Assembly (NCBI GenBank): GCA_902622745.1
Contig: CACNQW010000004.1
Location: 6,326-70,325 of the forward strand
Length of the DNA stretch: 64,000 nt
From: an uncultured SAR116 cluster alpha proteobacterium
GTDB lineage: Bacteria > Pseudomonadota > Alphaproteobacteria > Puniceispirillales > Marisalimonadaceae
Direction: 5' to 3'
The notes beneath the pieces were generated by a model that was not told the DNA's origin, did not search any database, and saw only the letters and a list, made by a program, of their open reading frames with translations. Each line of letters begins with the position of its first letter. The stretch's first letter is position 1. Made by a program: the position numbers and the translations under genes. Positions 44,579 through 59,099 of the stretch are shown one piece after another.

Positions 44579-45109
44579 ATGAGAATTTTAGTTAATACAA
44601 TTTATAAATCTAAATTAATCTTCAATAAAAGAGTATATGAATGTCAAGTTGGTAAAAATGGAATTTTGCCTCAATACAAAAAAATAGAAGGCGATAAATC
44701 TACTCCAATGGGAAAATGGAAAATATTAACAATTTTCATTAGAAGAGACAAAAAATTGAAGCTCAAATTTAATAAATATATTAAGAATAAAATAGTATTT
44801 ATTAAAAAAAATTTTATTTGGTGTGATGATATTAAAAGTTTTCATTATAACAAACTTTTAAAAGTTAACGATTTGTCAAATTTAAATTATTCATATGAAA
44901 AATTATTTAGAGATGATGAAGTATATGATATTATTTTGGAATTAAATCAAAATCAAAGACCTTGTATTAAAAATAAAGGTAGTGCAATTTTTATACATTG
45001 TTCATTCAATGATTTAAGGTCAACATTTGGTTGTGTGGCACTTAAAAAAAATATTTTAAAATTATTAATTAATAATTTACAAAAACAAAATTACATATAT
45101 ATAAGATGA
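44579..45109 (+). CDS. YkuD-fold L,D-transpeptidase-domain protein without recognisable signal peptide
   Basis: The catalytic motif IFIHCSFNDLRSTFGCVAL matches the YkuD H-x(n)-[ST]-x-G-C signature. The N-terminus (MRILVNTIYKSKLIFNKR) is not hydrophobic. Confidence 0.75.
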   Translation: MRILVNTIYKSKLIFNKRVYECQVGKNGILPQYKKIEGDKSTPMGKWKILTIFIRRDKKLKLKFNKYIKNKIVFIKKNFIWCDDIKSFHYNKLLKVNDLSNLNYSYEKLFRDDEVYDIILELNQNQRPCIKNKGSAIFIHCSFNDLRSTFGCVALKKNILKLLINNLQKQNYIYIR

Positions 45110-45132
45110 TTATACTAAGACTGGAGATATAG

Positions 45133-47139
45133 ATGATTTATAATATTTTACCAATTATTTTAGGTTTATTAGGGCTGTTAAGCGCATATTTTGTGTATTT
45201 AAAAGTTAAATCATCTCCAGAAGGATCGGGTAAAGTTAAAGAAATAGGCGATGAGATACATTTGGGTGCCATGGTATTTATGGCTAGTGAATACAAGAGG
45301 TTAGTGGCATTTTGTGTAATTTGCATCATAGCACTTTACTTTTCATTAGGTTGGGAAACAGCTTTGTCATTTTTTGTTGGAGCGGCATGTTCTGGTATAG
45401 CTGGGTTTATTGGGATGTATAGTGCTACAAAAGCAAATGTTAGGACAGCAGTTGCTGCTAATGACAAAGGTTCGTCTGAAGCTTTAAATGTTGCTTTTTT
45501 TGGTGGATCAATTATGGGATTGACTGTCGCATCAATGGGATTATTTGGTGTAGGTATTTTGTTCTATTATTTTGGAGGAGATGTCAAAACTGTTCATTCC
45601 ATCGAAGGATTTGCAATGGGAGCTTCATCAGTAGCATTATTTTCTCGTGTAGGTGGAGGAATTTTTACAAAGAGCGCTGACGTAGGTGCTGATTTAGTAG
45701 GTAAGGTTGAAGCTGGAATACCAGAAGATGATCCTAGAAATCCTGGGGTAATAGCAGATAATGTCGGAGATAATGTTGGTGACGTAGCAGGTATGGGCTC
45801 TGATATTTTCGAATCTTATTGTGGTTCAATGATAGCGTCTATAGCATTAGCTGCTTCCATGACATCTGCAACTATTAATAAATTAGGTGGTGATCAGTCT
45901 ATGCTGCAATTAATGCCTTTAGCTTTGGCTTCATTAGGATTAATTTGTTCTCTTATTGGAATACTTATGGTGAAAATATACTCCTCAAAGAGTCCCGAAA
46001 TCGCATTAAGATTTGGTACAATAGGTTCTGCTGTAGTTTTTATTATAGCTTCATATTTTTTGGTTAAATTTTTAGGTGTTTCTAGTGGGGTTTGGGCAGC
46101 GGTTTTAATTGGATCTGTAGGAGGTATAATCGTTGGTTTAGTTACCGAATATTATACAGGAGGAAGTCCAGTTAAAAAGATAGCTAAAGGTGGCGAAACT
46201 GGATCTGCAACAATTATGATAACAGGATTAGCCACAGGGATGCAATCCGTAGCAATACCCGTTTTTACAATAGTATGTATTATATTTACTTCAAATTATT
46301 TTGCAGGTCTTTATGGTGTAGGAATTGCAGCTATTGGAATGCTTAGCACAGTTGGAATTACAATGGCTATCGATGCATATGGTCCAGTTGCTGATAATGC
46401 GGGAGGTATTGCTGAAATGGCTGAAATGGGTAAAAAAACTAGAGAAATTACTGACTCTCTTGATGAAGTTGGTAACACAACTGCCGCAATTGGAAAAGGC
46501 TTTGCTATTAGTGCTGCTGCTCTTGCTGCTTTAGCTTTAATCAGTGCATATATAGAAAAAATTTCAATGAGTGATCCTTCATTTGTATTAGCAATTAATG
46601 ATCCCTTAGTTTTAAGTGGAATGTTTTTAGGTGGTATATTTCCATTTTTGGTTAGTTCAATGACAATGACTGCAGTGGGAGATGCTGCTTTTGATATGAT
46701 TAAAGAGATAAGAAGACAATTTAAAGAAATTCCTGGATTGCTTGAGGGAAAAGCAAAACCTGATACCGCTAAATGTGTAGATATCGCAACTCAAGCTGCC
46801 TTAAAGAAAATGATTTTGCCTGGCTCACTTGCGGTCCTAGCTCCAGTTGTCATAGGTTTTTTGTTAGGCCCTAAGGCTTTAGGCGGAATGCTAGGCGGTG
46901 CATTAATATGTTGTGTTATGATGGCTTTAATGATGTCCAATGCAGGTGGAGCCTGGGATAACGCAAAAAAATATGTAGAGAAAGGTAACTTTGGAGGAAA
47001 AGGTTCTGAAGTTCATAAAGCAGCTGTTGTAGGAGACACTGTTGGAGATCCGCTAAAAGATACCTCAGGACCATCTATGAATATATTAATTAATGTTATG
47101 GCAATAGTAAGCTTGGTTATAGCGCCACTTTTAATCTGA
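45133..47139 (+). CDS. hppA: membrane-bound ion-translocating pyrophosphatase (K+-dependent type signature)
   Basis: 668 aa, about 16 TM helices. Motifs [63 protein letters not shown]. Confidence 0.97.
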
Positions 47140-47140
47140 A

Positions 47141-48007
47141 TTATTCGTTAATAACATTTGAGAAATCTAAGTGCCCTTTCCCAGCTTTGACTAACTCGTC
47201 AAATTTATTAAATGTACTTAATCCATAATTGTTTTTTGAATTAGTTTGATTTATAGCATCAATTGCCAGACTTAGATCTTTATGCATTAGTGCAGTAGAA
47301 AAGCCTCCATTGTAATTATTATCCGAGGGACTTTTAGGCCCTATGCCTTTAATTGGACAGTAAGTATTAATTGCCCAACAAGACCCACTTGATGTCGATA
47401 ATACTTCAAATAATTTATTTAGATCTAAGCCAAGATTTTTTCCAAGTTCAAAACTTTCTCCTACAGCTATCATTGTACTTGCTAAAAGCATATTATTACA
47501 TATTTTCGCACTTTGACCTGCGCCATAAGCACCGCAATGTATTGATTTTTTCCCCATTATGTCAAAAAGGTCTTTTACATTATTTAAAGTTTTTTCATCA
47601 CCTCCTATCATAAATGTTAGTGTTCCTTCATCAGCCCCTACTACACCACCGGATACAGGTGCATCCAATGTTTCAATGTTTAGTTTTTGCGCGTTCTTTT
47701 GAACTAATAGCGATGTTTTGACATCGATTGTTGAACAATCAACTAAAATTTGTGAACTTTTTGCATGCATTAAGATTTCTTCCCATACTTTTAGAACTGC
47801 TTTCCCATCTGGAAGCATTGTTATGATATAATCACTATTCTCTGTAAGTTCTTTAATATTTTTCATTTGATTAATATTATATTTTTTTAATTCATTAAAG
47901 ACCTCTGAGTTTAAATCGAAGCCATTGATTATATAATTATTTTTAGATAAATTTATTGACATACCTTTACCCATGTTACCTAAACCTATAAATCCAATAT
48001 TAATCAT
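47141..48007 (-). CDS. mmsB: 3-hydroxyisobutyrate dehydrogenase
   Basis: [28 protein letters not shown], and [12 protein letters not shown] motifs of HIBADH. 288 aa. Confidence 0.88.
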
Positions 48008-48010
48008 AAG

Positions 48011-49117
48011 TCACTCCTCTTTTAATAAAATTTTCTGTAATGGATGTGTTTGTGTTTTTATAATTCTTTTGTTATCTAATTGTTTTATTAATATTTGTAT
48101 ATCTTGTTTTAAATTAAATAAATATGGGTACAATTCAATTGAAAGCGGTGATTTCCATTTCCATAATAAAATATCTAATGCATCAATTATTTTATTATCA
48201 AATTTATAATTCATTGTTTCTTCTGACTCTTCAAAATATGGTTTTTCGAAAAATTTATAAACTTTGAAAAATTCTTCAGGTATTTTTTGGTCAAGTATTA
48301 TTTTTTTCCAGTCTTCATATATATTTTTTGATTCCATAGTGCCATGAATAATTTTTAAGATTATGACATCAATATTTATTAAGCCAGTAAGATTAAACAT
48401 GAAATTTTTACTAATTTTAAAATCTGGTGGTGGGCCTAAAAAAATCCTTTTTGGACAATAATCATTAGAAAAATAATTACACCAATAAATTAACTTGTCA
48501 TCTTTTAATTTATCATTAATTTTTCTGTTTTTGCTATAGACATTGGAAGAAATAATTGTTTTGCCAGTATAGAAAATAAAAAAATTATCATTAATTATAT
48601 CTAAAAAATCATCCAAATAATTTTGACTATTATCTTCAATCTCATCTGAATAAACTCTGGGCACAACAATAAGTGGTTTTTTAAAATAAGCACTTAGTTT
48701 ATTACAGAGTTCAGCATGAAGCTTCCCTTCAGATTTATTTTGAAAAGATTTCTCTTCTATATCATCATATAATATAACTAACGATTTTGCTCCACAATGC
48801 TCTAACATCTGAAGTTTATTTTTTAAAATTGTAAAATCATCATTTCTGTAAGTAAAGTCAAAATCTAAGCCAGGACTTATGCCAATTATAATATTTATAT
48901 TTTTAGAATTTGCGTAATTACAAAATTTTTGAAAAGACCTCAGCCATATTTTAGGGTATTTTTTTCTCCAATCAAATCTATGCCTAATATCTTCTTTAGG
49001 TGCATAAAAATAGGAATTAAAGTTTAGTTCAGACAAATTTTTTATAATGGTTTTCCTTTGACTCCAAGTGAGGAGCTTTCCGTAAAAACCTTCAATATAA
49101 CCAATATTTTTTAACAT
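48011..49117 (-). CDS. glycoside hydrolase family 84-like protein (O-GlcNAcase/beta-N-acetylglucosaminidase-like), cytoplasmic
   Basis: GYIEGFYGKLLTWSQRKTIIKNLSELNFNSYFYAPKEDIRHRFDWRKKYP matches the GH84 N-terminal barrel. LVILYDDIE matches the catalytic Asp-Asp pair. YWCNYFSNDY...FLGPP matches the GH84 WWNFPVSDY...LLGP segment. No signal peptide. Confidence 0.75.
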   Translation of the reverse strand: MLKNIGYIEGFYGKLLTWSQRKTIIKNLSELNFNSYFYAPKEDIRHRFDWRKKYPKIWLRSFQKFCNYANSKNINIIIGISPGLDFDFTYRNDDFTILKNKLQMLEHCGAKSLVILYDDIEEKSFQNKSEGKLHAELCNKLSAYFKKPLIVVPRVYSDEIEDNSQNYLDDFLDIINDNFFIFYTGKTIISSNVYSKNRKINDKLKDDKLIYWCNYFSNDYCPKRIFLGPPPDFKISKNFMFNLTGLINIDVIILKIIHGTMESKNIYEDWKKIILDQKIPEEFFKVYKFFEKPYFEESEETMNYKFDNKIIDALDILLWKWKSPLSIELYPYLFNLKQDIQILIKQLDNKRIIKTQTHPLQKILLKEE

Positions 49118-49185
49118 TAATTTGTTTTATTATAATATTTTAAATTTATTGTTTTATTTAAAATACACAAGTTTTATATTAAGTT

Positions 49186-50163
49186 ATGAAAATAATAATC
49201 ACTGGTTTTTCTGGTTTCATAGGATATCATTTATGTAACCGTATTTTTTATGATCAAAAATATAAAGTAACAGGAGTTGATAATTTTAATAATTACTATG
49301 ACCCAGTGCTGAAAAAAGATAGATTTAAAATACTAAAACCTCATTTACATAATCATTATAACTGTAACATATCTAATCAAAGTAAAATTTTTGAGATTAT
49401 AGATTATGAAAAGCCTGACATTATTATTCATTTGGCAGCTCAAGCAGGTGTAAGATATTCTTTAGAAAATCCTCAGGCGTATTTTGAAAGCAATTTACAA
49501 GGTTTTTTTAATATTTTAGAAGCTTGTAGAATTTTTAAAATTAATAAACTAATTTTTGCATCTTCGTCTTCAGTATATGGTAATAATAAAAAAGACTATT
49601 TTTCAGAAAATGATTTTGTTGATAACCCATTAAATTTCTATGCAGCAAGTAAAAAGTCAAATGAATTAATGGCATATTCATATTCAAATTTATACAAAAT
49701 CATAATTGTTGGACTTCGTTTTTTTACTGTTTATGGACCGTTTGGACGTCCTGATATGTCTTACTATAAGTTCACTAACAACATTCTTAATGGTAAATAT
49801 ATAAATGTTTTTGGAAAAGGAGAAATGTACAGAGACTTTACATATGTAGATGATATAACTAATGGTATTTTTAGCTTGATAGAAACAATTAATACAAAAT
49901 TTTCTGAAAGTTCAGTCCCATATAATATTTTCAATATAGGAAACAATAATCCAGTGAAGTTAACTTATTTCATAAGTTTAATTGAAAAAGCTCTTGGCAT
50001 TAAAGCAAAAAAAAATTATTTGGACTTCCAGCAAGGTGAAGCTATTAAAACAGCAGCAAATATAAGTAAAATACAAAAATTTTTAAATTTTAATCCAACA
50101 ACAAAAATTGAGGATGGAATTCCAATTTTTGTAAAATGGTTTAAAGAATATCATAATTTATGA
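49186..50163 (+). CDS. NAD-dependent nucleotide-sugar epimerase (UDP-glucuronate 4-epimerase-like SDR)
   Basis: IIITGFSGFIGYHL Rossmann motif, SSSSVYG, and catalytic YAASKKSNE (Y-x3-K). The length and C-terminus resemble the CapI/WbnF-type epimerases. Confidence 0.82.
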   Translation: MKIIITGFSGFIGYHLCNRIFYDQKYKVTGVDNFNNYYDPVLKKDRFKILKPHLHNHYNCNISNQSKIFEIIDYEKPDIIIHLAAQAGVRYSLENPQAYFESNLQGFFNILEACRIFKINKLIFASSSSVYGNNKKDYFSENDFVDNPLNFYAASKKSNELMAYSYSNLYKIIIVGLRFFTVYGPFGRPDMSYYKFTNNILNGKYINVFGKGEMYRDFTYVDDITNGIFSLIETINTKFSESSVPYNIFNIGNNNPVKLTYFISLIEKALGIKAKKNYLDFQQGEAIKTAANISKIQKFLNFNPTTKIEDGIPIFVKWFKEYHNL

Positions 50164-50178
50164 TTTTAGGAGGAAATT

Positions 50179-50868
50179 ATTAAAATTCTAGCTATAGGTG
50201 CTCATCCTGATGACATTGAAATTTACATGTTTGGTTTGTTGTGTTTATTTAAAAAAAGGGGTGATAAAATCAATTCAATAGTTGCAACTGATGGTTCACT
50301 CGGTTCTGCTAAACCAGACCCCAAACTTGCTAAAGTAAGAGCAAATGAAACTAAACATGCATTAAAAGAATTATGTATTCCAACATTACTAGACATTAAA
50401 GATGGTCAACTTGGAAATCAAATATCTCATCAAAGAAAAATCTATAAAGAAATAAAAAAAATTGATCCAGATTTAATATTGACTCATTCAGAGAATGATT
50501 ATCACCCAGATCATAGAGCTTTATCCAGTATTGTAAAATCTATAGCAGGAATTTATTACCCAGTTTTATTTTGTGATAACTTTGTAGGAATAAATTTTAA
50601 TCCCAATTATTATGTGGACATTAGTGAATTTTTCCACCAAAAAAAAATTGCTATAAGCAGTCATAAATCACAAAAACCAGACAAATATATTGAACTTGTT
50701 GAAATCTGGAATCGTTTTCGTTCAGTTCAGTGCAATGGACCTGCGCAAACATATGTAGAAGCTTATAAATTTTTTCCTTCTTTCCCGTTTTCAGATATTA
50801 GAAATTTATTGCCTAATTCACCAAAGATAAGGCCTACATCTCTTAAAAAAAAAGGTGGATTAATTTAA
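50179..50868 (+). CDS. PIG-L/LmbE-family N-acetylglucosaminyl deacetylase, probable ATT start
   Basis: The frame is open from 50170 and encodes IIKILAIGAHPDDIEIY before the first ATG (50227). AHPDD is the Zn-binding PIG-L motif. HPDH lies further downstream. AGGAGG at 50168-50173 sits 5 nt upstream of ATT 50179. Confidence 0.7.
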   Translation: MKILAIGAHPDDIEIYMFGLLCLFKKRGDKINSIVATDGSLGSAKPDPKLAKVRANETKHALKELCIPTLLDIKDGQLGNQISHQRKIYKEIKKIDPDLILTHSENDYHPDHRALSSIVKSIAGIYYPVLFCDNFVGINFNPNYYVDISEFFHQKKIAISSHKSQKPDKYIELVEIWNRFRSVQCNGPAQTYVEAYKFFPSFPFSDIRNLLPNSPKIRPTSLKKKGGLI

Positions 50869-51953
50869 ATTTCTTTATAATTAATTACTTCTCCACCTAT
50901 TGAAGGTTTAACAACGCCAGTTGTAGTTGGAAATGTAATTGGCAATTGCTTTATTCTTCTTGCTGTAAGATAACAAATCATTTCAGCTTCAATTGTGTCG
51001 GGGTTAATTCCAAGATTTGTAGCAGAAAAAATTTTAGAATCACTATAGTTGATTAAGTTCTCCATTATAAAATTATTTTTGGCACCTCCACCTGAAATTA
51101 CACATGTTTGAGGTTTTTTTTTAAATTTGGATATTTCTAAAGCAATTGTTTTTACGGTAAATAATGAAAGAGTAGCTATTGTATCTTCAATTTTAGCATC
51201 TTTGAACAAATTTAAATATTTGTTGAAGTAATTTTTATCTAATGATTTTGGGTAATCTTGCTTGAAATAATCATCATCTAATAAGATTTTAAGTTTACTG
51301 AAATTAATATTACCACTATAAGCAAATTTACCATTCTCATCAAAATCAATCCCACGTTTTTCTTGAACAAATTTATCAATAAGACAATTACCTGGACCAG
51401 TATCAAAACCAATTAATTTTTTTTTATCACAGAAACTTATGTTTGTGATACCACCAATATTAATGAAGCAAGATGGAAAATTTAGTTTTTTTTCTTCAAT
51501 CAAAAATTTATGATAAATTGGAGAGATAGGGGCACCTTGACCATGAAGGCTTAAATCTCTTTTTCTAAAATCATAGACAACATCTTTTCTTAAAAGTTTA
51601 CTTAATAATTTTGCATTTCCTATTTGAATAGATTTAAATTTACTTGGCAAATGAAGAATTGTTTGGCCATGAAACCCTATGACTATAGGCTTATCCTTAT
51701 TTCTCTGGATAATTTTGTTTGCTGCTTTAAAATGATCATAAGTAATTTTTTCAGCCAATTCTTTGATGAAAGTTTTGTTTTTTATCAATTTTTCAGTATT
51801 TTTGTTTAATTTTTTAATTAAAAATTTTGTATTCTTATTATATTCAGCAACTAGTGTGTCAATAATATAAAATTTTTTTCTCCCATCTGTTTCAGCAAAA
51901 CATACATCTATCCCATCCATGCTGGTTCCTGACATTAAGCCAATAATTTTCAT
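50865..51953 (-). CDS. anmK: anhydro-N-acetylmuramic acid kinase
   Basis: From Met16 of the tracked ORF: MKIIGLMSGTSMDGIDV, the AnmK N-terminal signature. NIGGITN and DTGPGNCLID motifs. 4-nt convergent overlap with the PIG-L gene. Confidence 0.9.
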   Translation of the reverse strand: MKIIGLMSGTSMDGIDVCFAETDGRKKFYIIDTLVAEYNKNTKFLIKKLNKNTEKLIKNKTFIKELAEKITYDHFKAANKIIQRNKDKPIVIGFHGQTILHLPSKFKSIQIGNAKLLSKLLRKDVVYDFRKRDLSLHGQGAPISPIYHKFLIEEKKLNFPSCFINIGGITNISFCDKKKLIGFDTGPGNCLIDKFVQEKRGIDFDENGKFAYSGNINFSKLKILLDDDYFKQDYPKSLDKNYFNKYLNLFKDAKIEDTIATLSLFTVKTIALEISKFKKKPQTCVISGGGAKNNFIMENLINYSDSKIFSATNLGINPDTIEAEMICYLTARRIKQLPITFPTTTGVVKPSIGGEVINYKEI

Positions 51954-52034
51954 GGATGCTATAATATAGAAAATAGATAATGTTGTATACATTTTCACTT
52001 CTTTTAATTATAAATCATAATTGTTAGGTTATAT

Positions 52035-53039
52035 ATGACATATTTAATATTTGGAGGTGCAGGTTTTATAGGCATCAATTTCGTCAAATTGATTTTATCA
52101 TTAAATGTCAAAATAGTTGTTTTTGATAAGCTAACGGAAGTTTCAAACAAAAAGGAAATAAATAATTTAGTTTATCAAAATAAAATTATATTTATAAATG
52201 AAGATATTTGTAATTATGAAAAAGTTTTTTTTTGTATTAAAAAATTTGAACCAACTTATATTATAAATTTTGCTGCAGAAACGCATGTCGATAATTCAAT
52301 TAAAAATCCTGACAGTTTTATAAGCACAAATATCGTAGGTACTTACACTATTTTAAAAGCATTACAAAGTTTTAAAAATTCCAAATACTGGAATAATTTT
52401 CGATATTTAAATATTTCTACTGATGAAGTTTATGGATCTTTAGGTAAGAATGACCCACCTTTCACTGAAGGATCTAAAATGTGTCCTAATAGTCCTTATT
52501 CTGCATCCAAAGCAAGTGCAGATCATCTAGTGAGGTCATATTTTAAAACTTTTGGTTTGCCAGTTTTAACAAGTAATTGTTCTAATAATTTTGGTCCTTT
52601 TCAACACGTTGAAAAGTTAATTCCATTGACAATAGATAAATGTCTAAATTTACAAAAAATACCAATTTATGGAAATGGAAAAAATGTAAGAGATTGGATT
52701 TTTGTAAGAGATCATTGTAATGTCTTAAAATTAATATTGGAAAATGGAAAATTGGGTGAAGTATATAATATTGGTGGAGGACAAGAATTAAAAAATATAG
52801 ATCTTGTCAAAATGATATGTGAATATTTTGATAAGTCTATACCTCAGAAATCTGGTAAAAAATACTCTGATTTAATTTCTTTTGTAGATGATCGACCAGG
52901 GCATGACCAAAGGTATGCAGTTAATAATAAAAAAATTACATCTCATTTTGGATGGAACCCTTCAACATCATTTAAAGATAATTTAGAAACAACAATAAAA
53001 TGGTATATTGAAAATAATTTTAGTAAGAAAAATGATTAA
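52035..53039 (+). CDS. rfbB: dTDP-glucose 4,6-dehydratase
   Basis: IFGGAGFIGINF, ISTDEVYG, and YSASKASADHLVRSY (Y-x3-K). First gene of the rfbBACD block. Confidence 0.95.
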   Translation: MTYLIFGGAGFIGINFVKLILSLNVKIVVFDKLTEVSNKKEINNLVYQNKIIFINEDICNYEKVFFCIKKFEPTYIINFAAETHVDNSIKNPDSFISTNIVGTYTILKALQSFKNSKYWNNFRYLNISTDEVYGSLGKNDPPFTEGSKMCPNSPYSASKASADHLVRSYFKTFGLPVLTSNCSNNFGPFQHVEKLIPLTIDKCLNLQKIPIYGNGKNVRDWIFVRDHCNVLKLILENGKLGEVYNIGGGQELKNIDLVKMICEYFDKSIPQKSGKKYSDLISFVDDRPGHDQRYAVNNKKITSHFGWNPSTSFKDNLETTIKWYIENNFSKKND

Positions 53040-53907
53040 TAGAAAAGGCATTATACTTTCTGGAGGAACAGGATCTAGGTTATATCCAATAACTCAGGTT
53101 GTTTCAAAACAATTAATACCTGTTTTTGATAAGCCAATGATATATTATCCACTTTCAACTCTAATGAGCATTGGAATTACAGAAATTCTTATTATTACAA
53201 CGCCAAACGATTTAGACAAATTTAAATCTTTATTATCCAATGGCAATCAATGGGGGATTTCTATTGAATATCAAGTTCAAAAAAAACCTAATGGAATTGC
53301 TGAAGCTTTAATTATAGCTGAAAAATTTATTAAAAATAGTAATGTTGTTTTGATATTAGGAGATAATATATTTCATGGGAACGATTTACCAAATCGATTG
53401 AAAAAAGTTAGCATTGACGAAGAAACAGCAACAATTTTAGCTTACCCAGTGAAGAATCCGGATCAATATGGGATTGTAAATTTTGACAAAGATTTTAACC
53501 CAATTAGCTTAGAAGAAAAACCTCAAACTCCAAAATCAAAGTTTGCTATTACAGGGATGTATTTTTATGATAAAGAAGCTTGTAGTCTGGCAAAAAAATT
53601 ACTTCCTTCCAACAGAGGTGAACTTGAAATTACTGATCTAAATATAATGTATATGAAGCGTAAAAAGTTAAAAGTTTTTCTTTTAGATAGAGGAGATGTT
53701 TGGCTTGACGCAGGTACGCATATCACATTATCACAAGCTACTCAATATGTTCAAACAATTGAAGAAAGACAAGGAATGAAAATCTCTTGTCCAGAGGAAG
53801 TTGCATATAGATCAAATTTAATTGATAAAAATAAATTAAAACTTTTAGCCAAGAGATACTCAAATAATGACTATGGTAAATATTTATATAATCTGATTGA
53901 TACATGA
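53032..53907 (+). CDS. rfbA: glucose-1-phosphate thymidylyltransferase
   Basis: From the internal Met: MINRKGIILSGGTGSRLYPIT, KQLIPVFDKPMIYYPLS, LGDNIF, EITDLN. ATG at 53032 overlaps the rfbB stop by 8 nt. Confidence 0.95.
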   Translation: MINRKGIILSGGTGSRLYPITQVVSKQLIPVFDKPMIYYPLSTLMSIGITEILIITTPNDLDKFKSLLSNGNQWGISIEYQVQKKPNGIAEALIIAEKFIKNSNVVLILGDNIFHGNDLPNRLKKVSIDEETATILAYPVKNPDQYGIVNFDKDFNPISLEEKPQTPKSKFAITGMYFYDKEACSLAKKLLPSNRGELEITDLNIMYMKRKKLKVFLLDRGDVWLDAGTHITLSQATQYVQTIEERQGMKISCPEEVAYRSNLIDKNKLKLLAKRYSNNDYGKYLYNLIDT

Positions 53908-54449
53908 TTTTTTCTAAAACTAAAATTGTGGATGTATTTATAATAAAACCAAAACTTTTTCATGATGAAAGAGGTTTTTTTTATGAATCATGGAATATAG
54001 ATTATTTTAATAAAAAAGTAGGAAAAAATTTTTCTTTCATTCAAGAAAATGTTTCATTTTCAAAAAAAAATGTTTTAAGAGGACTTCATTATCAAGTTTC
54101 AAAACCTCAGGGTAAGTTAGTAAGTGTTTTTAATGGATCCATTTTAGATGTTGTCATTGATTTGAGAAAATCTTCAAAGACATTTGGCAAACATATTACC
54201 TATAAGTTATCTAGTAGGAATAAAGAATTACTTTGGGTTCCTCCAGGTTGTGCGCATGGGTTTTTAGTTCTTTCAAATTTTGCAAAAGTTTTATATCAGG
54301 TAACAGATAATTATTCACCCAATGATGAAAGATGTATTCTTTGGAGTGACCGAACTCTTATGATTAATTGGGGAATAAGAAATAAGCCAAAAATATCCCA
54401 AAAAGATAGCAAGGGCGTGACATTTTTAGAAGCAGAAAAATTCAAATGA
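53904..54449 (+). CDS. rfbC: dTDP-4-dehydrorhamnose 3,5-epimerase
   Basis: FHDERGFFYESW, LRGLHYQ, KLVSVFNGSILDVVIDLR, and PPGCAHGF motifs of RmlC. ATGA overlaps at both ends. Confidence 0.95.
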   Translation: MIFSKTKIVDVFIIKPKLFHDERGFFYESWNIDYFNKKVGKNFSFIQENVSFSKKNVLRGLHYQVSKPQGKLVSVFNGSILDVVIDLRKSSKTFGKHITYKLSSRNKELLWVPPGCAHGFLVLSNFAKVLYQVTDNYSPNDERCILWSDRTLMINWGIRNKPKISQKDSKGVTFLEAEKFK

Positions 54450-56053
54450 AGATAGTTGTATTCGGAGGTTATGGTCAACTTGGTTTAATTTTTCAAGAGT
54501 TAAATTTAAAAGAATTTGATTTACTTTTTTTTAAAAGAAAACATTTTGAAACTCAAAATTATGATCAAATATATAAATTAATAGAAATTCACAAACCTCA
54601 AGTAATTATAAATTTTTTAGCTTTTACAAATGTTGATCAATGTGAAATATCAAAAGAAAAAGCAATAGAAGCTAATTCAATTTTTCCAAAACACTTATCT
54701 ATTGCAGCAAAAAAACATTCCTCCTTTTTAATTCATATTTCTACAGATTATGTTTTTGGAGATAATTCCAAACAAAAATTATTAGAAAAAACTGATACAT
54801 TTCCAATTAACTTTTATGGAAAAAGCAAAAGAGACGGTGAACTTAACATTATCAAATCAAAATGTAATTATATAATTTTAAGAACCTCTTGGATATATAG
54901 TGACAAAAAAAATAATTTTTTTTTGACAATAAAAAAATTACTTGAATCTAACAAAAAAGTTATTTCTGTAGTCAATGATCAATTCGGCGCACCTACATCA
55001 GGATATGATTTTATTTTATCTTTAAAAAAAATCTTAGTTTCAATCAAGAAAAATAATTCTAAAAACTATCAGAAAAAAATTACTGGAATTTATCATTTGA
55101 CAAATGCTGGAGAAGGAAGTTGGTATAATTTTGCTTGTGAAATATCAAAAAATTTGGGATATGATTTTAGTCAAAGAATTGCTTCAATAAATTCAAATAA
55201 AATAAATAGATTGGCTAAAAGACAAACCAACTCTAGGTTAAGCAATAATAAAATTAAAAAAGTTTTTAATATAAATTTACCTAAATGGGAAAATAGTTTA
55301 AATATATTTTGTAAAGAAAAGTTTAGCATGAATACAGAATCTATTCCTGAAAAGTTTATTGACCATTTGATGTTGAAAGATAGTGTTAAACTGATGTTAG
55401 ATGACAAACTTCACGCTGTGAAAAAACTTTATGGTTGCATCAATGAAATTGAATTAATTGTTAATAAAATTTTTGATCATTTACAAAGCAACTCTAATTC
55501 AAGATTAATTTATGTTGGAGCTGGCACATCCGGTAGAATAGCAGTACAAGATGGTTCTGAGCTTTTCCCTACATTTGGATGGCCAAAATCACGAACAGAA
55601 TTCATAATAGCAGGCGGGTTAAAAGCTCTAACTCAATCTATTGAAAACTCAGAAGATGATATAAAATCTGCTAAAAAAATGTCAGCTGATAAAAAAATTT
55701 CTTCAAGTGATATTATTTTAGCAGTATCTGCTAATGGTAATACATTATTTACAAATGAGGTAATCAAATTTTCAAATAGCAGAAAAGCATTAACAGTTGG
55801 TATTACTAACAATCACAAGACTCTCTTGGAAAAAAACTCAAAACTCACATTAGTAGTTAATACTGGAGCTGAATTGGTTGCAGGCTCGACACGTTTAAAA
55901 GCTGGAACTATTCAAAAAATAGTACTTAACATTATATCTACACTGGTATTTGTAAAACTAGGTTGTGTAGAGCAAGGTCTCATGGTAAATATGCGACCTA
56001 GCAACTGTAAACTTAGAAAAAGAAAAAATCTTATTAACAAAATTTTGTCATAA
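54446..56053 (+). CDS. rfbD-murQ: fused dTDP-4-dehydrorhamnose reductase (aa 1-294) / N-acetylmuramic acid 6-phosphate etherase (aa 295-535)
   Basis: N-terminal half: FGGYGQLG, ISTDYVFGD, YGKSKRDGE (RmlD Y-x3-K). C-terminal half from ATG 55328: RLIYVGAGTSGRIAVQDGSELFPTFGW and GSTRLKAGTIQK (SIS-domain MurQ). No stop codon lies between the halves. Confidence 0.8.
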   Translation: MKIVVFGGYGQLGLIFQELNLKEFDLLFFKRKHFETQNYDQIYKLIEIHKPQVIINFLAFTNVDQCEISKEKAIEANSIFPKHLSIAAKKHSSFLIHISTDYVFGDNSKQKLLEKTDTFPINFYGKSKRDGELNIIKSKCNYIILRTSWIYSDKKNNFFLTIKKLLESNKKVISVVNDQFGAPTSGYDFILSLKKILVSIKKNNSKNYQKKITGIYHLTNAGEGSWYNFACEISKNLGYDFSQRIASINSNKINRLAKRQTNSRLSNNKIKKVFNINLPKWENSLNIFCKEKFSMNTESIPEKFIDHLMLKDSVKLMLDDKLHAVKKLYGCINEIELIVNKIFDHLQSNSNSRLIYVGAGTSGRIAVQDGSELFPTFGWPKSRTEFIIAGGLKALTQSIENSEDDIKSAKKMSADKKISSSDIILAVSANGNTLFTNEVIKFSNSRKALTVGITNNHKTLLEKNSKLTLVVNTGAELVAGSTRLKAGTIQKIVLNIISTLVFVKLGCVEQGLMVNMRPSNCKLRKRKNLINKILS

Positions 56054-56061
56054 CAAATCAA

Positions 56062-57363
56062 ATGAAACAATCAAAAAGAAAATCTCTGACAGTTGTTGGA
56101 TTGGGGTATGTAGGACTTCCACTTGCAACAGCTTTAAGTTATCATTATTCAGTGAAAGGCTTTGATATTGAGAAAACAAAGGTTGCCGAGTTAAATAAAA
56201 TTAAAACCTTAAAAAAGAACACATATAAAAGTCTGAATAAAAAAGAATTTTTAGGAATTAAAAAAATTTCTTTTACGTCTGAACCTTATGATATAGAAAA
56301 TCAAGATTATTATATTGTAACAGTTCCTACTCCAATCGATCAAGCATTTAAACCTGATCTTTCTCATTTAATCGAAGCAAGCTCTTTAATTGGGAAATCT
56401 CTTAAAAAAGGATCATTAGTTATATATGAATCTACTGTTTACCCAGGTGCAACTGAAGATATTTGTATTCCTACCTTAGAAAAAGTATCTGGAATGAAAC
56501 ATAAAAAAGATTTTGGTGTCTGTTATAGTCCTGAAAGAGTTAATCCTGGTGACAACAAGCATAAATTAGAAAATGTTAATAAGATTATAGCGGCTGATAC
56601 TTACAAGAATCTTAAAATCTTAAAAAAAATTTATAAAAACATAATCCAAGCAGATCTTGTTGAAGTTAGTAGCATAAAAGTTGCTGAAACATGTAAAGTT
56701 TTAGAAAACACCCAGAGGGATATAAATATAGCGCTTGTTAATGAACTATCTATAATATGTGATAAATTAGGAATTAAAACTAATGAAGTACTTTCAGCAT
56801 CCAGTACTAAATGGAATTTTATTAATTTCAAACCTGGCTTAGTTGGAGGGCATTGTATTAGTGTAGATCCACATTATTTGAGTTATAAATCAAAATTGGA
56901 AGGTTATTTCCCAGAAGTAATTCATGCTGGAAGAAAAGTTAATGATGGAATGTGGTCTTTTATAAGGGATAAAACAATTTCATTATCAACATCTCTTAAA
57001 AAAATACCTCATGAAAGTAGATTATGTATTTTAGGGATTACTTTTAAAGAAAATTGCGATGATATAAGAAATTCACAAGTGATAAAGATTTATCAAAGCT
57101 TAAGAGAATTTGGTTTTAATATATCTATATTTGATCCAGTCGCAAATATCAAAGAAGTTCAAAATAGTTTCAATGTAAAACTACTGCAATGGAATGAATT
57201 AAAAAAATATGATGGTTTAATTTTAGCAGTCGCACATGATTATTTTAAAAAGTTAAAAAGTAAAGATTTCGAAGAAATTTTAAAAGACAAAGCTTTCATA
57301 ATTGATATCAAGTCAATTTTGTGTACTACAAATTTTAAAAAACACATTGTTTGGCAACTTTAA
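56062..57363 (+). CDS. nucleotide-sugar 6-dehydrogenase (UDP-glucose/GDP-mannose dehydrogenase family; WbpO/TviB-like)
   Basis: VVGLGYVGLPLATAL NAD motif, YSPERVNPGD, and catalytic Cys context GLVGGHCISVDP. 433 aa. Confidence 0.88.
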   Translation: MKQSKRKSLTVVGLGYVGLPLATALSYHYSVKGFDIEKTKVAELNKIKTLKKNTYKSLNKKEFLGIKKISFTSEPYDIENQDYYIVTVPTPIDQAFKPDLSHLIEASSLIGKSLKKGSLVIYESTVYPGATEDICIPTLEKVSGMKHKKDFGVCYSPERVNPGDNKHKLENVNKIIAADTYKNLKILKKIYKNIIQADLVEVSSIKVAETCKVLENTQRDINIALVNELSIICDKLGIKTNEVLSASSTKWNFINFKPGLVGGHCISVDPHYLSYKSKLEGYFPEVIHAGRKVNDGMWSFIRDKTISLSTSLKKIPHESRLCILGITFKENCDDIRNSQVIKIYQSLREFGFNISIFDPVANIKEVQNSFNVKLLQWNELKKYDGLILAVAHDYFKKLKSKDFEEILKDKAFIIDIKSILCTTNFKKHIVWQL

Positions 57364-59099
57364 ATTGGAATTATATTTTAGTGATTTTTAAAAGTACAAT
57401 AGATGATTTAACGATTTTATTTTTAAAATTAAAATCAAATTTTTTCTATAGTTTCTTGTTGTTACTATTAGTTTTATTGATAACATGTTTATTTGAAATG
57501 ATTACATTAGCTGCAATAGTTCCATTACTTGCATTGTTAACAGATAAATCATTGTTGGATAACATCCCTATAGTTAAATATCTTTTAGAATCTTTTTCTC
57601 AAATATTAAGTTTACCGATTTTACATGTTTTAATTATATCTTTTTTGTTTTTAGTAATACTAGCTGTTTTTCTTAGAGTGTTCTTATTATATTTAAATTC
57701 TAACTTAACAGTAAAAATTGGAAATTGGTTAAGTATGAAAGTATTTTCAATTTATATTAACCAGAATTATTTATTTCATACAAATTCTAATACAAGTGAA
57801 ACTATAAGTACAATTAGAGATAAAGTAGAAATTGTAGTATTTGCAATAATTTTGCCAATTTTTACATTAATTACAAATCTAGTTTTAGCCTTAATGATAA
57901 TTTTAATGATTTTTGTAATTAGTTGGAAGATTTCACTAGTCCTTATTTTAGTATTAACTCCAACATACATTGTCATTATGAAAATTTATAAAAATAAACT
58001 CTTAAAAAATAGTTTAGCTATAAATTCAAATCAAACAAACACCGTGAAAATAATTCAAGAAACTCTTGGTGAAATAAGAGAGTTAATTATGAATAATAAT
58101 CAAAGTTTTTACATAAATAAATTTTATAAACCTGATTATACATTAAGAAAATCACTTGCTAGTAACTTATTGATTGCAGGAATACCTAGGATTTTAGTAG
58201 AGGGCGTGGGTATAATTTTAATAAGTTTAATTGCTTTTTATTTATCAACAACTGAACAAGGGTTAATTTTTTATATTCCGGTATTAGGCGCTCTTGCGGT
58301 TGGGGCACAAAGAATATTACCGTCAATTCAACAAGCCTATGCAGCTTGGGTAACAATAATAGGAAATAGAAGTTCATTAGATGCAATTATTCAAACTTTA
58401 AATCTTGAAAGAAAAATAGTTGATAAGAACACAAAAAAAATGAAATTTAATAAACAAATAAATTTTGAAAATGTGAGTTTTCAATATAATGATAAAAATG
58501 AGGTAATTCGAAATTTAAACTTTGAAATTAAGAAAGGTGAAATTTTTGGTCTTGTAGGTAAAACAGGTGAAGGTAAAAGTACAACTATAGATTTGATATG
58601 TGGATTGATATATCCTAAAAAGGGTGAAGTTAAAGTTGATGGAAAAAAAATAAATTTTAAAAATGCTGTCAATTGGCAAAAAAATATTTCATTAGTCCCA
58701 CAACAAATATATTTATCTGATTTGTCACTAATTGAAAATATTTGTCCCGGTATCCAATTAAAAGATATAAATTATAAGAAAATCAATGAAGTTTTAAAAT
58801 TATGTGATTTAGATATTTTTGTTAATAAGTTAAGTGAGGGTCTCTTTACAAATATAGGTGAAAGAGGCATAAGATTGAGTGGAGGGCAAAGACAAAGAAT
58901 AGGGATTGCAAGAGCGCTTTATAGAGAAAATCCTATATTAATTTTTGATGAAGCTACTAACGCATTGGACGAAGAAACAGAGAAAAAAATTATAAAAAAT
59001 ATTATCACTTACAAAATTAACTTTACATTTATAATCATATCACATAGAAAATCAACATTGAAATTTTGCAATCAAATACTAGATCTTAAAAAACTATGA
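57351..59099 (+). CDS. fused TMD-NBD ABC exporter (MsbA/glycan-flippase-like)
   Basis: About six N-terminal TM helices. Walker A GKTGEGKST, signature LSGGQRQRIGIARAL, Walker B ILIFDEATNALD. The tracked TTG start at 57351 overlaps the upstream gene; an in-frame GTG at 57381 is an alternative start. Confidence 0.88.
   Translation: MATLNWNYILVIFKSTIDDLTILFLKLKSNFFYSFLLLLLVLLITCLFEMITLAAIVPLLALLTDKSLLDNIPIVKYLLESFSQILSLPILHVLIISFLFLVILAVFLRVFLLYLNSNLTVKIGNWLSMKVFSIYINQNYLFHTNSNTSETISTIRDKVEIVVFAIILPIFTLITNLVLALMIILMIFVISWKISLVLILVLTPTYIVIMKIYKNKLLKNSLAINSNQTNTVKIIQETLGEIRELIMNNNQSFYINKFYKPDYTLRKSLASNLLIAGIPRILVEGVGIILISLIAFYLSTTEQGLIFYIPVLGALAVGAQRILPSIQQAYAAWVTIIGNRSSLDAIIQTLNLERKIVDKNTKKMKFNKQINFENVSFQYNDKNEVIRNLNFEIKKGEIFGLVGKTGEGKSTTIDLICGLIYPKKGEVKVDGKKINFKNAVNWQKNISLVPQQIYLSDLSLIENICPGIQLKDINYKKINEVLKLCDLDIFVNKLSEGLFTNIGERGIRLSGGQRQRIGIARALYRENPILIFDEATNALDEETEKKIIKNIITYKINFTFIIISHRKSTLKFCNQILDLKKL

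Follow-up and report, generated by a model that had tools for sequence, protein, structure and literature searches.

A probable inherited rmlD–murQ gene fusion in a putative surface-glycan island of an uncultured SAR116 alphaproteobacterium

Can a single polypeptide join two enzymes from pathways with no evident link and, if so, what does the union signify? The question is raised by one open reading frame (ORF) in a 64,000-nucleotide (nt) stretch of DNA, here called the window, from an uncultured SAR116 cluster alphaproteobacterium (assembly GCA_902622745.1, contig CACNQW010000004.1, positions 6,326 to 70,325 of the forward strand). On the plus strand, positions 54446–56053 hold one frame, running from ATG to TAA and encoding 535 amino acids (aa; 60.6 kDa), with no stop between an N-terminal half resembling RmlD, an enzyme of dTDP (deoxythymidine diphosphate)-L-rhamnose synthesis, and a C-terminal half resembling MurQ, the MurNAc-6-P (N-acetylmuramic acid 6-phosphate) etherase of peptidoglycan recycling. 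A preliminary description of this DNA had correctly claimed an uninterrupted 535-aa frame, and had left three alternatives side by side: a true bifunctional protein, extreme genome compaction with internal initiation, or a lost stop codon. The evidence now available favours, with a probability of about 0.75, a real, inherited gene fusion that would yield one polypeptide with two catalytic domains, most likely working independently. Of the earlier alternatives, a real fused gene is thus the one supported, produced by loss of the boundary between tightly packed neighbours and kept by purifying selection.

The N-terminal half had been read as a complete RmlD, and profile searches bear this out. 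PF04321 (RmlD_sub_bind) matches aa 1–290 at E 8e-72, covering profile positions 1–283 of 287, and the rmlD model TIGR01214 scores 226.6 bits with the whole protein and 229.1 bits with the half alone, against a cutoff of 224.05. The sequence motifs quoted in the preliminary description are all present, as is the Met295 codon at 55328–55330. The nucleotide-binding motif GGYGQLG, of the GxxGxxG type, occupies aa 7–13, and T100 (54743–54745), Y124 (54815–54817) and K128 (54827–54829) align with the catalytic triad T104/Y128/K132 of the Salmonella enterica enzyme (1kbz; PMC4832382). Relatives in the PDB include 3sc6, 1vl0 and 1kbz (E 6e-39 to 2.5e-34), the best being the B. anthracis and C. acetobutylicum enzymes. 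The predicted role of this half is most likely the last step in making dTDP-L-rhamnose for a surface glycan.

The C-terminal half, earlier proposed to be a MurNAc-6-P etherase, is matched by the subfamily model PRK05441 at 235.7 bits in the whole protein and 237.9 bits in the half (cutoff 168), over aa 302–528 and profile positions 15–239 of 300; searches with each half, as had been suggested, agree with those made with the whole protein. Both catalytic glutamates are in place, Glu372 (55559–55561, within GSELFPTFG) and Glu403 (55652–55654, within IENSEDD), their motifs aligning with DASECPPTFG and VEGAEDN of Haemophilus influenzae MurQ, and both residues, along with the phosphate-binding GAGTSGR loop, are invariant among 45 aligned sequences. 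We take these glutamates to be the equivalents of Glu83 and Glu114 of Escherichia coli MurQ, in the numbering of Hadi and Tanner. By sequence, the half matches PDB entries 4lzj/1nri at E 7e-36. Its AlphaFold2 model is confident (predicted local distance difference test, pLDDT, 95.7; predicted template-modelling score, pTM, 0.91), and in Foldseek it superposes on H. influenzae MurQ (1nri, whose crystal model has 248 ordered residues) with template-modelling (TM) scores of 0.95/0.92 and a root-mean-square deviation of 1.2 Å, and on 4lzj, 4m0d and 4s12 with TMq values of 0.87–0.93. Other SIS enzymes, GmhA and KdsD, reach TM scores of 0.5–0.65 at most.

Alignment with long-form MurQs revealed that the GKRP-like C-terminal helical lid (PF20741-like, ~55 aa) is absent from this half, the long forms extending 52–73 aa past its end. 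Short relatives, of which 30 were aligned, end 0–8 aa past its C-terminus, and its best 120 relatives, at 47–66% identity, are all short (225–294 aa, with 2 of the 120 outside 243–260 aa). Their sources are marine metagenomes and genomes, and those that bear a name are labelled ‘N-acetylmuramic acid 6-phosphate etherase [Alphaproteobacteria bacterium]’. Since all 120 are without the lid, free-standing genes included, the short C-terminus is typical of the clade and was not lost here; the MurQ half belongs, complete, to a MurQ clade without lids, and is no truncated gene. The preliminary description had reported a missing C-terminal tail of ~35–40 aa, which both understates the distance to the long forms and mistakes a length that is normal in this clade for a deficit. 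At the other end, free-standing short MurQs start 2–11 aa upstream of the Met295 equivalent. The lid-less clade is very large and marine alphaproteobacterial, its members including window positions 55328–56050, proteins P0331–P0448, and genes on contigs L003 (8869–9636) and L022 (7001–7747); the catalytic residues are invariant, and the window MurQ half is the sole member modelled.

AnmK, a kinase also encoded at this locus, makes MurNAc-6-P, the substrate of MurQ. Judged by their sequences, AnmK and the MurQ half most likely convert recycled anhydro-MurNAc to N-acetylglucosamine 6-phosphate (GlcNAc-6-P) and D-lactate. MurQ is a homodimer, and its activity can be measured by coupled D-lactate detection (bioRxiv 10.64898/2026.05.08.723886). 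In S. enterica RmlD, the determinants of dimerisation are E15, E190 and E292, together with a P-x-G break in helix α1 (PMC4832382). Two of these are absent from the RmlD half, which has I15 for E15 and K22-E-F for P-V-G, with acidic residues kept at the other two Mg sites (D at the E190 position, and E291); the half is therefore probably monomeric, in which case its C-terminal fusion to dimeric MurQ poses no symmetry conflict. This suggests a MurQ-mediated dimer bearing two RmlD lobes through a coil of ~11 residues, a length taken from the profile envelopes; in the MurQ-half model, residues 1–10 are coil with lower pLDDT. At the junction, the RmlD tail is followed immediately by the MurQ N-terminus, which is coil-like, without any linker between them, and the tryptic peptide that spans it would be FSMNTESIPEK (aa 293–303). 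Both domains are expected to be active in the fused context, and no substrate channelling between them is envisaged.

Whether the frame is real can be judged from independent copies of it. A second complete 535-aa fusion (P0124) is encoded on an independent Tara Oceans scaffold, L001, and on L002, a long-read contig of 63 kb, a fragment (P0123) continues across the junction, both proteins falling in the same 90% cluster. In DNA alignment, the junction, AAAGAAAAGTTTAGCATGAA, is identical and indel-free in the window, L001 and L002, its longest homopolymer being A4, and the same string recurs on a fourth and very noisy contig, L026. L002 otherwise holds many long-read indels of its own and so constitutes independent data. 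Of the 1608 nt compared between the window and L001, 25 differ, 19 of these differences being synonymous and six nonsynonymous, and the two fused alleles have diverged to a synonymous distance (dS) of ~0.06. By the Nei–Gojobori method, the ratio of nonsynonymous to synonymous divergence (ω) comes to 0.044 in the RmlD half and 0.121 in the MurQ half, with a synonymous excess significant overall (p = 3e-9) and in each half (p = 2e-6 and 4e-4, respectively). Both halves have been under purifying selection since the fused alleles split. Identical junctions, together with this synonymous excess, make a sequencing artefact or a decaying pseudogene very unlikely.

L002 was also considered as a recombinant, since tblastn gave 60% identity for the N-terminal part of RmlD, and this was rejected, the DNA alignment identifying the same allele at ~98–99% with long-read indels. 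In contigs of this kind (L002, L021, L025 and L026, ENA ‘..._pilon’ or low-coverage contigs), indels of 1–2 nt break nearly every gene and give spurious calls, and protein-level identities against them are misleading.

The nearest RmlD relatives (48–51% identical) are encoded on Tara and Logan contigs whose gene order is exactly that of the window: H+-PPase, HIBADH (minus strand), a GH84-like β-N-acetylglucosaminidase (NAGidase; minus strand), an epimerase, PIG-L, AnmK (minus strand), rmlB, rmlA, rmlC, rmlD, a murQ-like gene, a ugd-like gene and an ABC flippase. They form two groups of sister alleles (L003–L008 and L016–L019), in both of which rmlD (294–295 aa) and murQ (255 aa) are separate, overlapping by 20 nt in one group and 17 nt in the other; murQ occupies the +1 frame and begins with an ATG inside the A-run tATGAAAAAAAg. 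The preliminary description had pointed to sister genomes as the place where a break between the halves would tell against a fusion; such breaks do occur, in these ~50% identical alleles, whereas every assembly of the allele in the window is fused.

The relationship between the fused and unfused forms becomes clearer when the flanks are compared. Up to PIG-L, the flanking genes of the sister contigs share 92–99.6% protein identity with the window, whereas inside the island identity falls to 58–66% for AnmK, 57–74% for RmlB/A/C, 48–51% for RmlD, 56% for MurQ, 52% for Ugd and 41–45% for the ABC transporter. This cliff places a left breakpoint at ~50868, at the boundary of PIG-L (50227–50868) and anmK. 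With near-identical flanks and divergent island genes, close relatives thus carry ancient alternative alleles of the locus, one fused and the others not. The locus looks like a hypervariable surface-glycan island subject to cassette-type allele replacement, with anmK and murQ carried along.

More distant loci indicate that the adjacency of rmlD and murQ is itself a matter of circumstance. On L022 (an NCBI assembly) and L025, AnmK (minus strand) and a short MurQ (plus strand) lie side by side in divergent orientation, the rml genes being absent from the space between, and the pair adjoins the same HIBADH/NAGidase/PIG-L flank as in the window. L022 and the window diverge evenly across the cluster (44–52% identity), without the cliff of the sister contigs. 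In L023, the interval between anmK and murQ contains ManC, Amidase_2 and NlpC/P60 together with differently oriented rml genes, and in L024 the short MurQ lies within another glycan cluster. As the anmK/murQ pair exists without rml in L022 and L025, the rmlD–murQ adjacency is contingent and no sign of a shared pathway. The interval behaves as an insertion hot-spot, being empty in L022 and L025, holding rmlBACD in the window, L003, L016 and L021, and having other contents in L023.

How the boundary was lost is suggested by the junction. The window frame passes through an A-rich tract from an RmlD-like FCKEK (F[I/M]YEKK in the sisters) to a MurQ-like S-M-N-T (S-K-N-T in the sisters), and Met295 is not homologous to the sister murQ start, aligning instead with sister Lys7. 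From these alignments, the fusion appears to be a derived frame merger through net loss of 1 nt in the A-rich tract. In the sequence of events proposed, an rmlBACD cassette would have come to sit between the divergent anmK and murQ at the edge of the glycan island, making rmlD and murQ neighbours; the two genes would then have overlapped by 17–20 nt, murQ occupying the +1 frame and starting in the A-run; and a net loss of 1 nt in that run would have brought both genes into one frame and eliminated the stop of rmlD. Covalent 1:1 co-synthesis would thereby have replaced translational coupling, and a streamlined genome may have tolerated the fusion or given it a mild advantage, with no metabolic coupling needed. 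A frame-merging indel between overlapping operon neighbours, both domains since maintained by selection, is a mundane mechanism, and the best-supported one.

The 3′ end of the sister rmlD (L003 8860–8890; L016 7860–7890) carries GA_AAA_AAG over the murQ start, identical to the −1 slippery heptamer of dnaX (A_AAA_AAG). Programmed frameshifting in the sister alleles was nevertheless rejected, as slippage by −1 would lead into a frame rich in stops and murQ lies in +1, making a recoding role improbable. That the sister A-run is a mutational hot-spot for frame merger is plausible.

Several points weigh against the fusion as a working, two-enzyme protein and against this account of its origin. For the MurQ half, the equivalog model TIGR00274 (165–168 bits, cutoff 302) and the MurQ model PRK12570 (181–183 bits, cutoff 255) both fall below their thresholds, partly because the last ~60 C-terminal profile positions are missing, and to our knowledge no lid-less MurQ enzyme has been characterised or assayed. 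For the RmlD half, the margin over TIGR01214 is small, and its sequence would also fit another 4-ketoreductase of this kind, a 6-deoxy-L-talose synthase for instance. The activity of the two domains is argued from sequence and a structural model; the exact 1-nt event is beyond proof, the nearest unfused alleles being ~50% identical; and the fused allele is seen in a handful of contigs only. Finally, murQ is co-oriented and tightly packed with rmlD and the TviB-like dehydrogenase across alleles that are ~50% identical, which could point to a functional association.

One alternative is compatible with the fusion, and concerns which product matters. The long ORF would be translated, and a second start at the ATG at 55328 would give a free 26.5-kDa MurQ as the relevant etherase, a tentative proposition that is possible though on balance doubtful. 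The natural N-termini of free-standing short MurQs are a few residues away from Met295, whose ATG is present in all fused assemblies, but these alleles are too similar for such conservation to inform, and as the codon is not homologous to the sister start, it could be a chance occurrence. Pairing with the anti-Shine–Dalgarno sequence averages −1.8 kcal/mol at real starts and −1.7 kcal/mol at internal ATGs, and is −1.0 kcal/mol at 55328; as real starts pair no better than internal ATGs, this test carries no information on the candidate, and a missing Shine–Dalgarno sequence is no obstacle in a genome that does not rely on such pairing. Promoter-like sites, for their part, occur at background level.

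An adaptive origin is unlikely. Under this explanation, the fusion, and the presence of a lid-less MurQ in an rml–ugd–flippase operon, would reflect a real link between salvage and surface glycan, or an etherase acting on a lactyl-ether sugar phosphate that is not derived from peptidoglycan. The tight packing of murQ described above would suit it, as would the short MurQ in the glycan clusters of L023 and L024, and GlcNAc-6-P, the product of MurQ, is a precursor of uridine diphosphate (UDP)-GlcNAc. But murQ pairs with anmK alone in L022 and L025, the active-site residues are those of a canonical MurQ, and the fusion is found in one allele only. The substrate of RmlD, moreover, is a dTDP-6-deoxy sugar without a 6-phosphate, whereas SIS etherases bind sugar 6-phosphates, leaving no shared intermediate. 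It is likewise improbable that the fusion marks a coupling, in this marine clade, of peptidoglycan-sugar salvage to a strain-specific surface glycan, the lid-less MurQ feeding salvaged GlcNAc-6-P into UDP-GlcNAc(A) or processing another lactyl-ether sugar phosphate, and the covalent link fixing the stoichiometry of the two branches. If the dehydrogenase at 56062–57363 uses UDP-GlcNAc, GlcNAc-6-P from MurQ lies upstream of its substrate, and this is the sole conceivable link within the operon.

Decay is more improbable again. A frame merger that was a recent, deleterious lesion, with one or both halves becoming a pseudogene, would fit an architecture limited to one allele among billions of proteins, and a MurQ half without the C-terminal lid and without ~5 N-terminal residues of its free-standing relatives. 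The marked surplus of synonymous changes that each half has gathered since the fused alleles diverged speaks against it, however, as do the intact catalytic residues, the confident model of a complete SIS fold, and the absence of the lid clade-wide, free-standing genes included. Least credible of all is an indel error of 1 nt near 55320 that falsely joins separate genes. In its favour, the surroundings are AT-rich, the two alternative frames have TAG and TGA exactly where the ATG stands so that one base would split the genes, the sister alleles are unfused, and indel errors abound in the long-read contigs of this population. Against it, the same indel-free junction is found in three genotypically distinct assemblies from different technologies (the NCBI genome, Tara L001 and the polished long-read L002), L001 encodes the whole 535 aa with 25 single-nucleotide polymorphisms of its own, and the RmlD profile match stays in frame until 5 residues before Met295.

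An inherited fusion of two working domains remains the preferred reading, and as an architecture it appears to be undescribed so far. Across ~5.8 billion proteins searched, the sole two-domain match was the query's own 90% cluster, and when 1.84 billion cluster representatives were searched exhaustively with HMMER, no other protein with both RmlD and MurQ was present among the best 150 matches. Neither the fusion nor its junction had close relatives in species-representative genomes, which gave distant RmlDs only (29–35% identity), or in JGI metagenomes, which gave one weak match. No fusion of RmlD with MurQ appears in the literature describing fusions of the Rml pathway, in keeping with the earlier remark that none was known. 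Other architectures seen were RmlD–GT2 (P0177) and GNAT–MurQ. Three proteins with long two-stretch matches (P0135, P0153 and P0205) were rejected as RmlD fusions, being double-SIS proteins resembling GKRP, and P0133 was rejected as a fusion of MurQ with its neighbour Ugd, since it sits on a frameshift-ridden long-read contig.

The coordinates of the fused gene, its parts and its neighbours are collected in Table 1. anmK is transcribed divergently from the rml operon, in which spacings from rmlB to the ABC gene are −32, −4, −4, +8 and −13 nt, and no terminator-like site was found within 52035–59099. The ORF call for rmlA starts at a TTG, giving the 32-nt overlap with rmlB; on L001 the gene call is 290 aa, the RmlA profile begins at residue 13, and the true start is probably the ATG nine codons downstream (MINRKG...).

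Table 1. Positions in the window of the fused gene, its parts and the surrounding genes.
Feature	Position	Strand	Basis or remark
Fused rmlD–murQ ORF	54446..56053 (stop codon included)	+	Same architecture in P0124/L001; same junction in L002
RmlD domain, aa 1–290, short-chain dehydrogenase/reductase (SDR) fold	54446..55315	+	TIGR01214 profile; PDB matches 3sc6, 1vl0, 1kbz
Junction, aa 291–301, EKFSMNTESIP	55316..55348	+	Between the two profile envelopes
ATG of Met295, candidate internal start	55328..55330	+	Predicted free MurQ of 26.5 kDa
Short-form, lid-less MurQ-like SIS domain, aa 302–535	55349..56050	+	PRK05441 profile; 4lzj/1nri match
anmK (anhydro-MurNAc kinase)	50865..51998	-	NF007141, 372 bits (cutoff 352); first gene in divergent island
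rmlB	52035..53039	+	TIGR01181, 416 bits, above cutoff
rmlA	53008 or later ATG, to 53907	+	TIGR01207, 415 bits, above cutoff
rmlC	53904..54449	+	TIGR01221, 226 bits, above cutoff
Nucleotide-sugar dehydrogenase, TviB/Ugd-like	56062..57363	+	TviB-type match, 401 bits, below equivalog cutoff of 592
PglK/MsbA-like ABC flippase	57351..59099	+	Starts 13 nt inside the dehydrogenase gene

A conserved, putative peptidoglycan-salvage cluster was also noticed (44579–51998 in the window; 566–7747 in L022; 3096–7744 in L025), comprising H+-PPase, HIBADH, the GH84-like β-N-acetylglucosaminidase, a PIG-L/LmbE-type deacetylase, AnmK and MurQ. A YkuD-like L,D-transpeptidase of this cluster is seen in L022, its candidate counterpart in the window being a 176-aa ORF at 44579–45109. 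Roles otherwise held by NagZ and NagA might fall to the GH84-like and PIG-L proteins. The window as a whole has a GC content of ~25–35%, and its 64 kb gave no match to a tRNA, an rRNA or any other Rfam family at the gathering threshold. Named homologues (SdhA within a ≥90% cluster, SucA at 79%) resolve no further than ‘Alphaproteobacteria bacterium’; a SAR11-like organism would be plausible, assignment to the Pelagibacterales of the preliminary description being tentative. It is nearly wall-to-wall protein-coding, with frequent 4-nt overlaps of the ATGA type, which fits a streamlined genome, and Tara data show this population at very high abundance.

What, then, does the union signify? Probably a curiosity of compact genomes, and no new pathway. 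Its value lies partly in the caution that it offers for ‘Rosetta-stone’ inference, as a population-verified fusion of enzymes from unrelated pathways illustrates that fusion need not mean functional interaction. The history behind it can be read directly from the sister alleles, with a mobile glycan cassette between salvage genes and two frames one base apart. In annotation, the gene is best labelled bifunctional, and neither split nor flagged as a frameshift. The lid-less MurQ clade and the cassette-like island are by-products of more interest than the mechanism of fusion: the former exposes a large group of enzymes in abundant marine Alphaproteobacteria, and the sweeping along of anmK and murQ with glycan-island replacement bears on the evolution of such islands under phage pressure.

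Among known systems, the RmlD half most resembles the monomeric, GacA-like class (PDB 4wpg, 3sc6 and 1vl0), with which it shares a full SDR fold, the T/Y/K triad and the GxxGxxG motif, as well as the lack of E15 and of the P-x-G helix break of the S. enterica-type dimer (PMC4832382). Its genomic setting is also that of a typical RmlD, the gene following rmlB–rmlA–rmlC in one operon, and the difference is a C-terminal extension of 241 aa that amounts to a complete second enzyme. The MurQ half has the SIS fold of characterised MurQ (E. coli; H. influenzae HI0754; PDB 1nri/4lzj/4s12; TM 0.89–0.95), at 33–34% identity to the PDB chains in structural superposition and 42–46% to long-form alphaproteobacterial MurQs. 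Both catalytic glutamates, the GAGTSGR loop and a nearby anmK are held in common with these enzymes; unlike them, it is without the ~55-aa PF20741 lid and is fused behind RmlD.

That the etherase SIS domain tolerates fusion is evident from the GKRP-like double-SIS proteins and from GNAT–MurQ, GKRP itself having descended from a duplicated, fused murQ. These have no SDR/RmlD domain, unlike the fusion in the window, and the MurQ-like domain is N-terminal in the double-SIS proteins and follows the GNAT domain in GNAT–MurQ; a lid is present in P0153, P0205 and P0191, with none detected in P0135. Fusions within the Rml pathway have been described, including RmlC–RmlD in ~1% of prokaryotes and in microalgae, RmlA–RmlC, and plant RHM (bioRxiv 10.1101/854612; PMC6556577). 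In these, and in RmlD–GT2, the partners belong to the same pathway or glycan, whereas here the partner is a peptidoglycan-salvage enzyme with which RmlD shares no intermediate; what the window fusion has in common with them is an Rml domain joined to the product of its operon neighbour.

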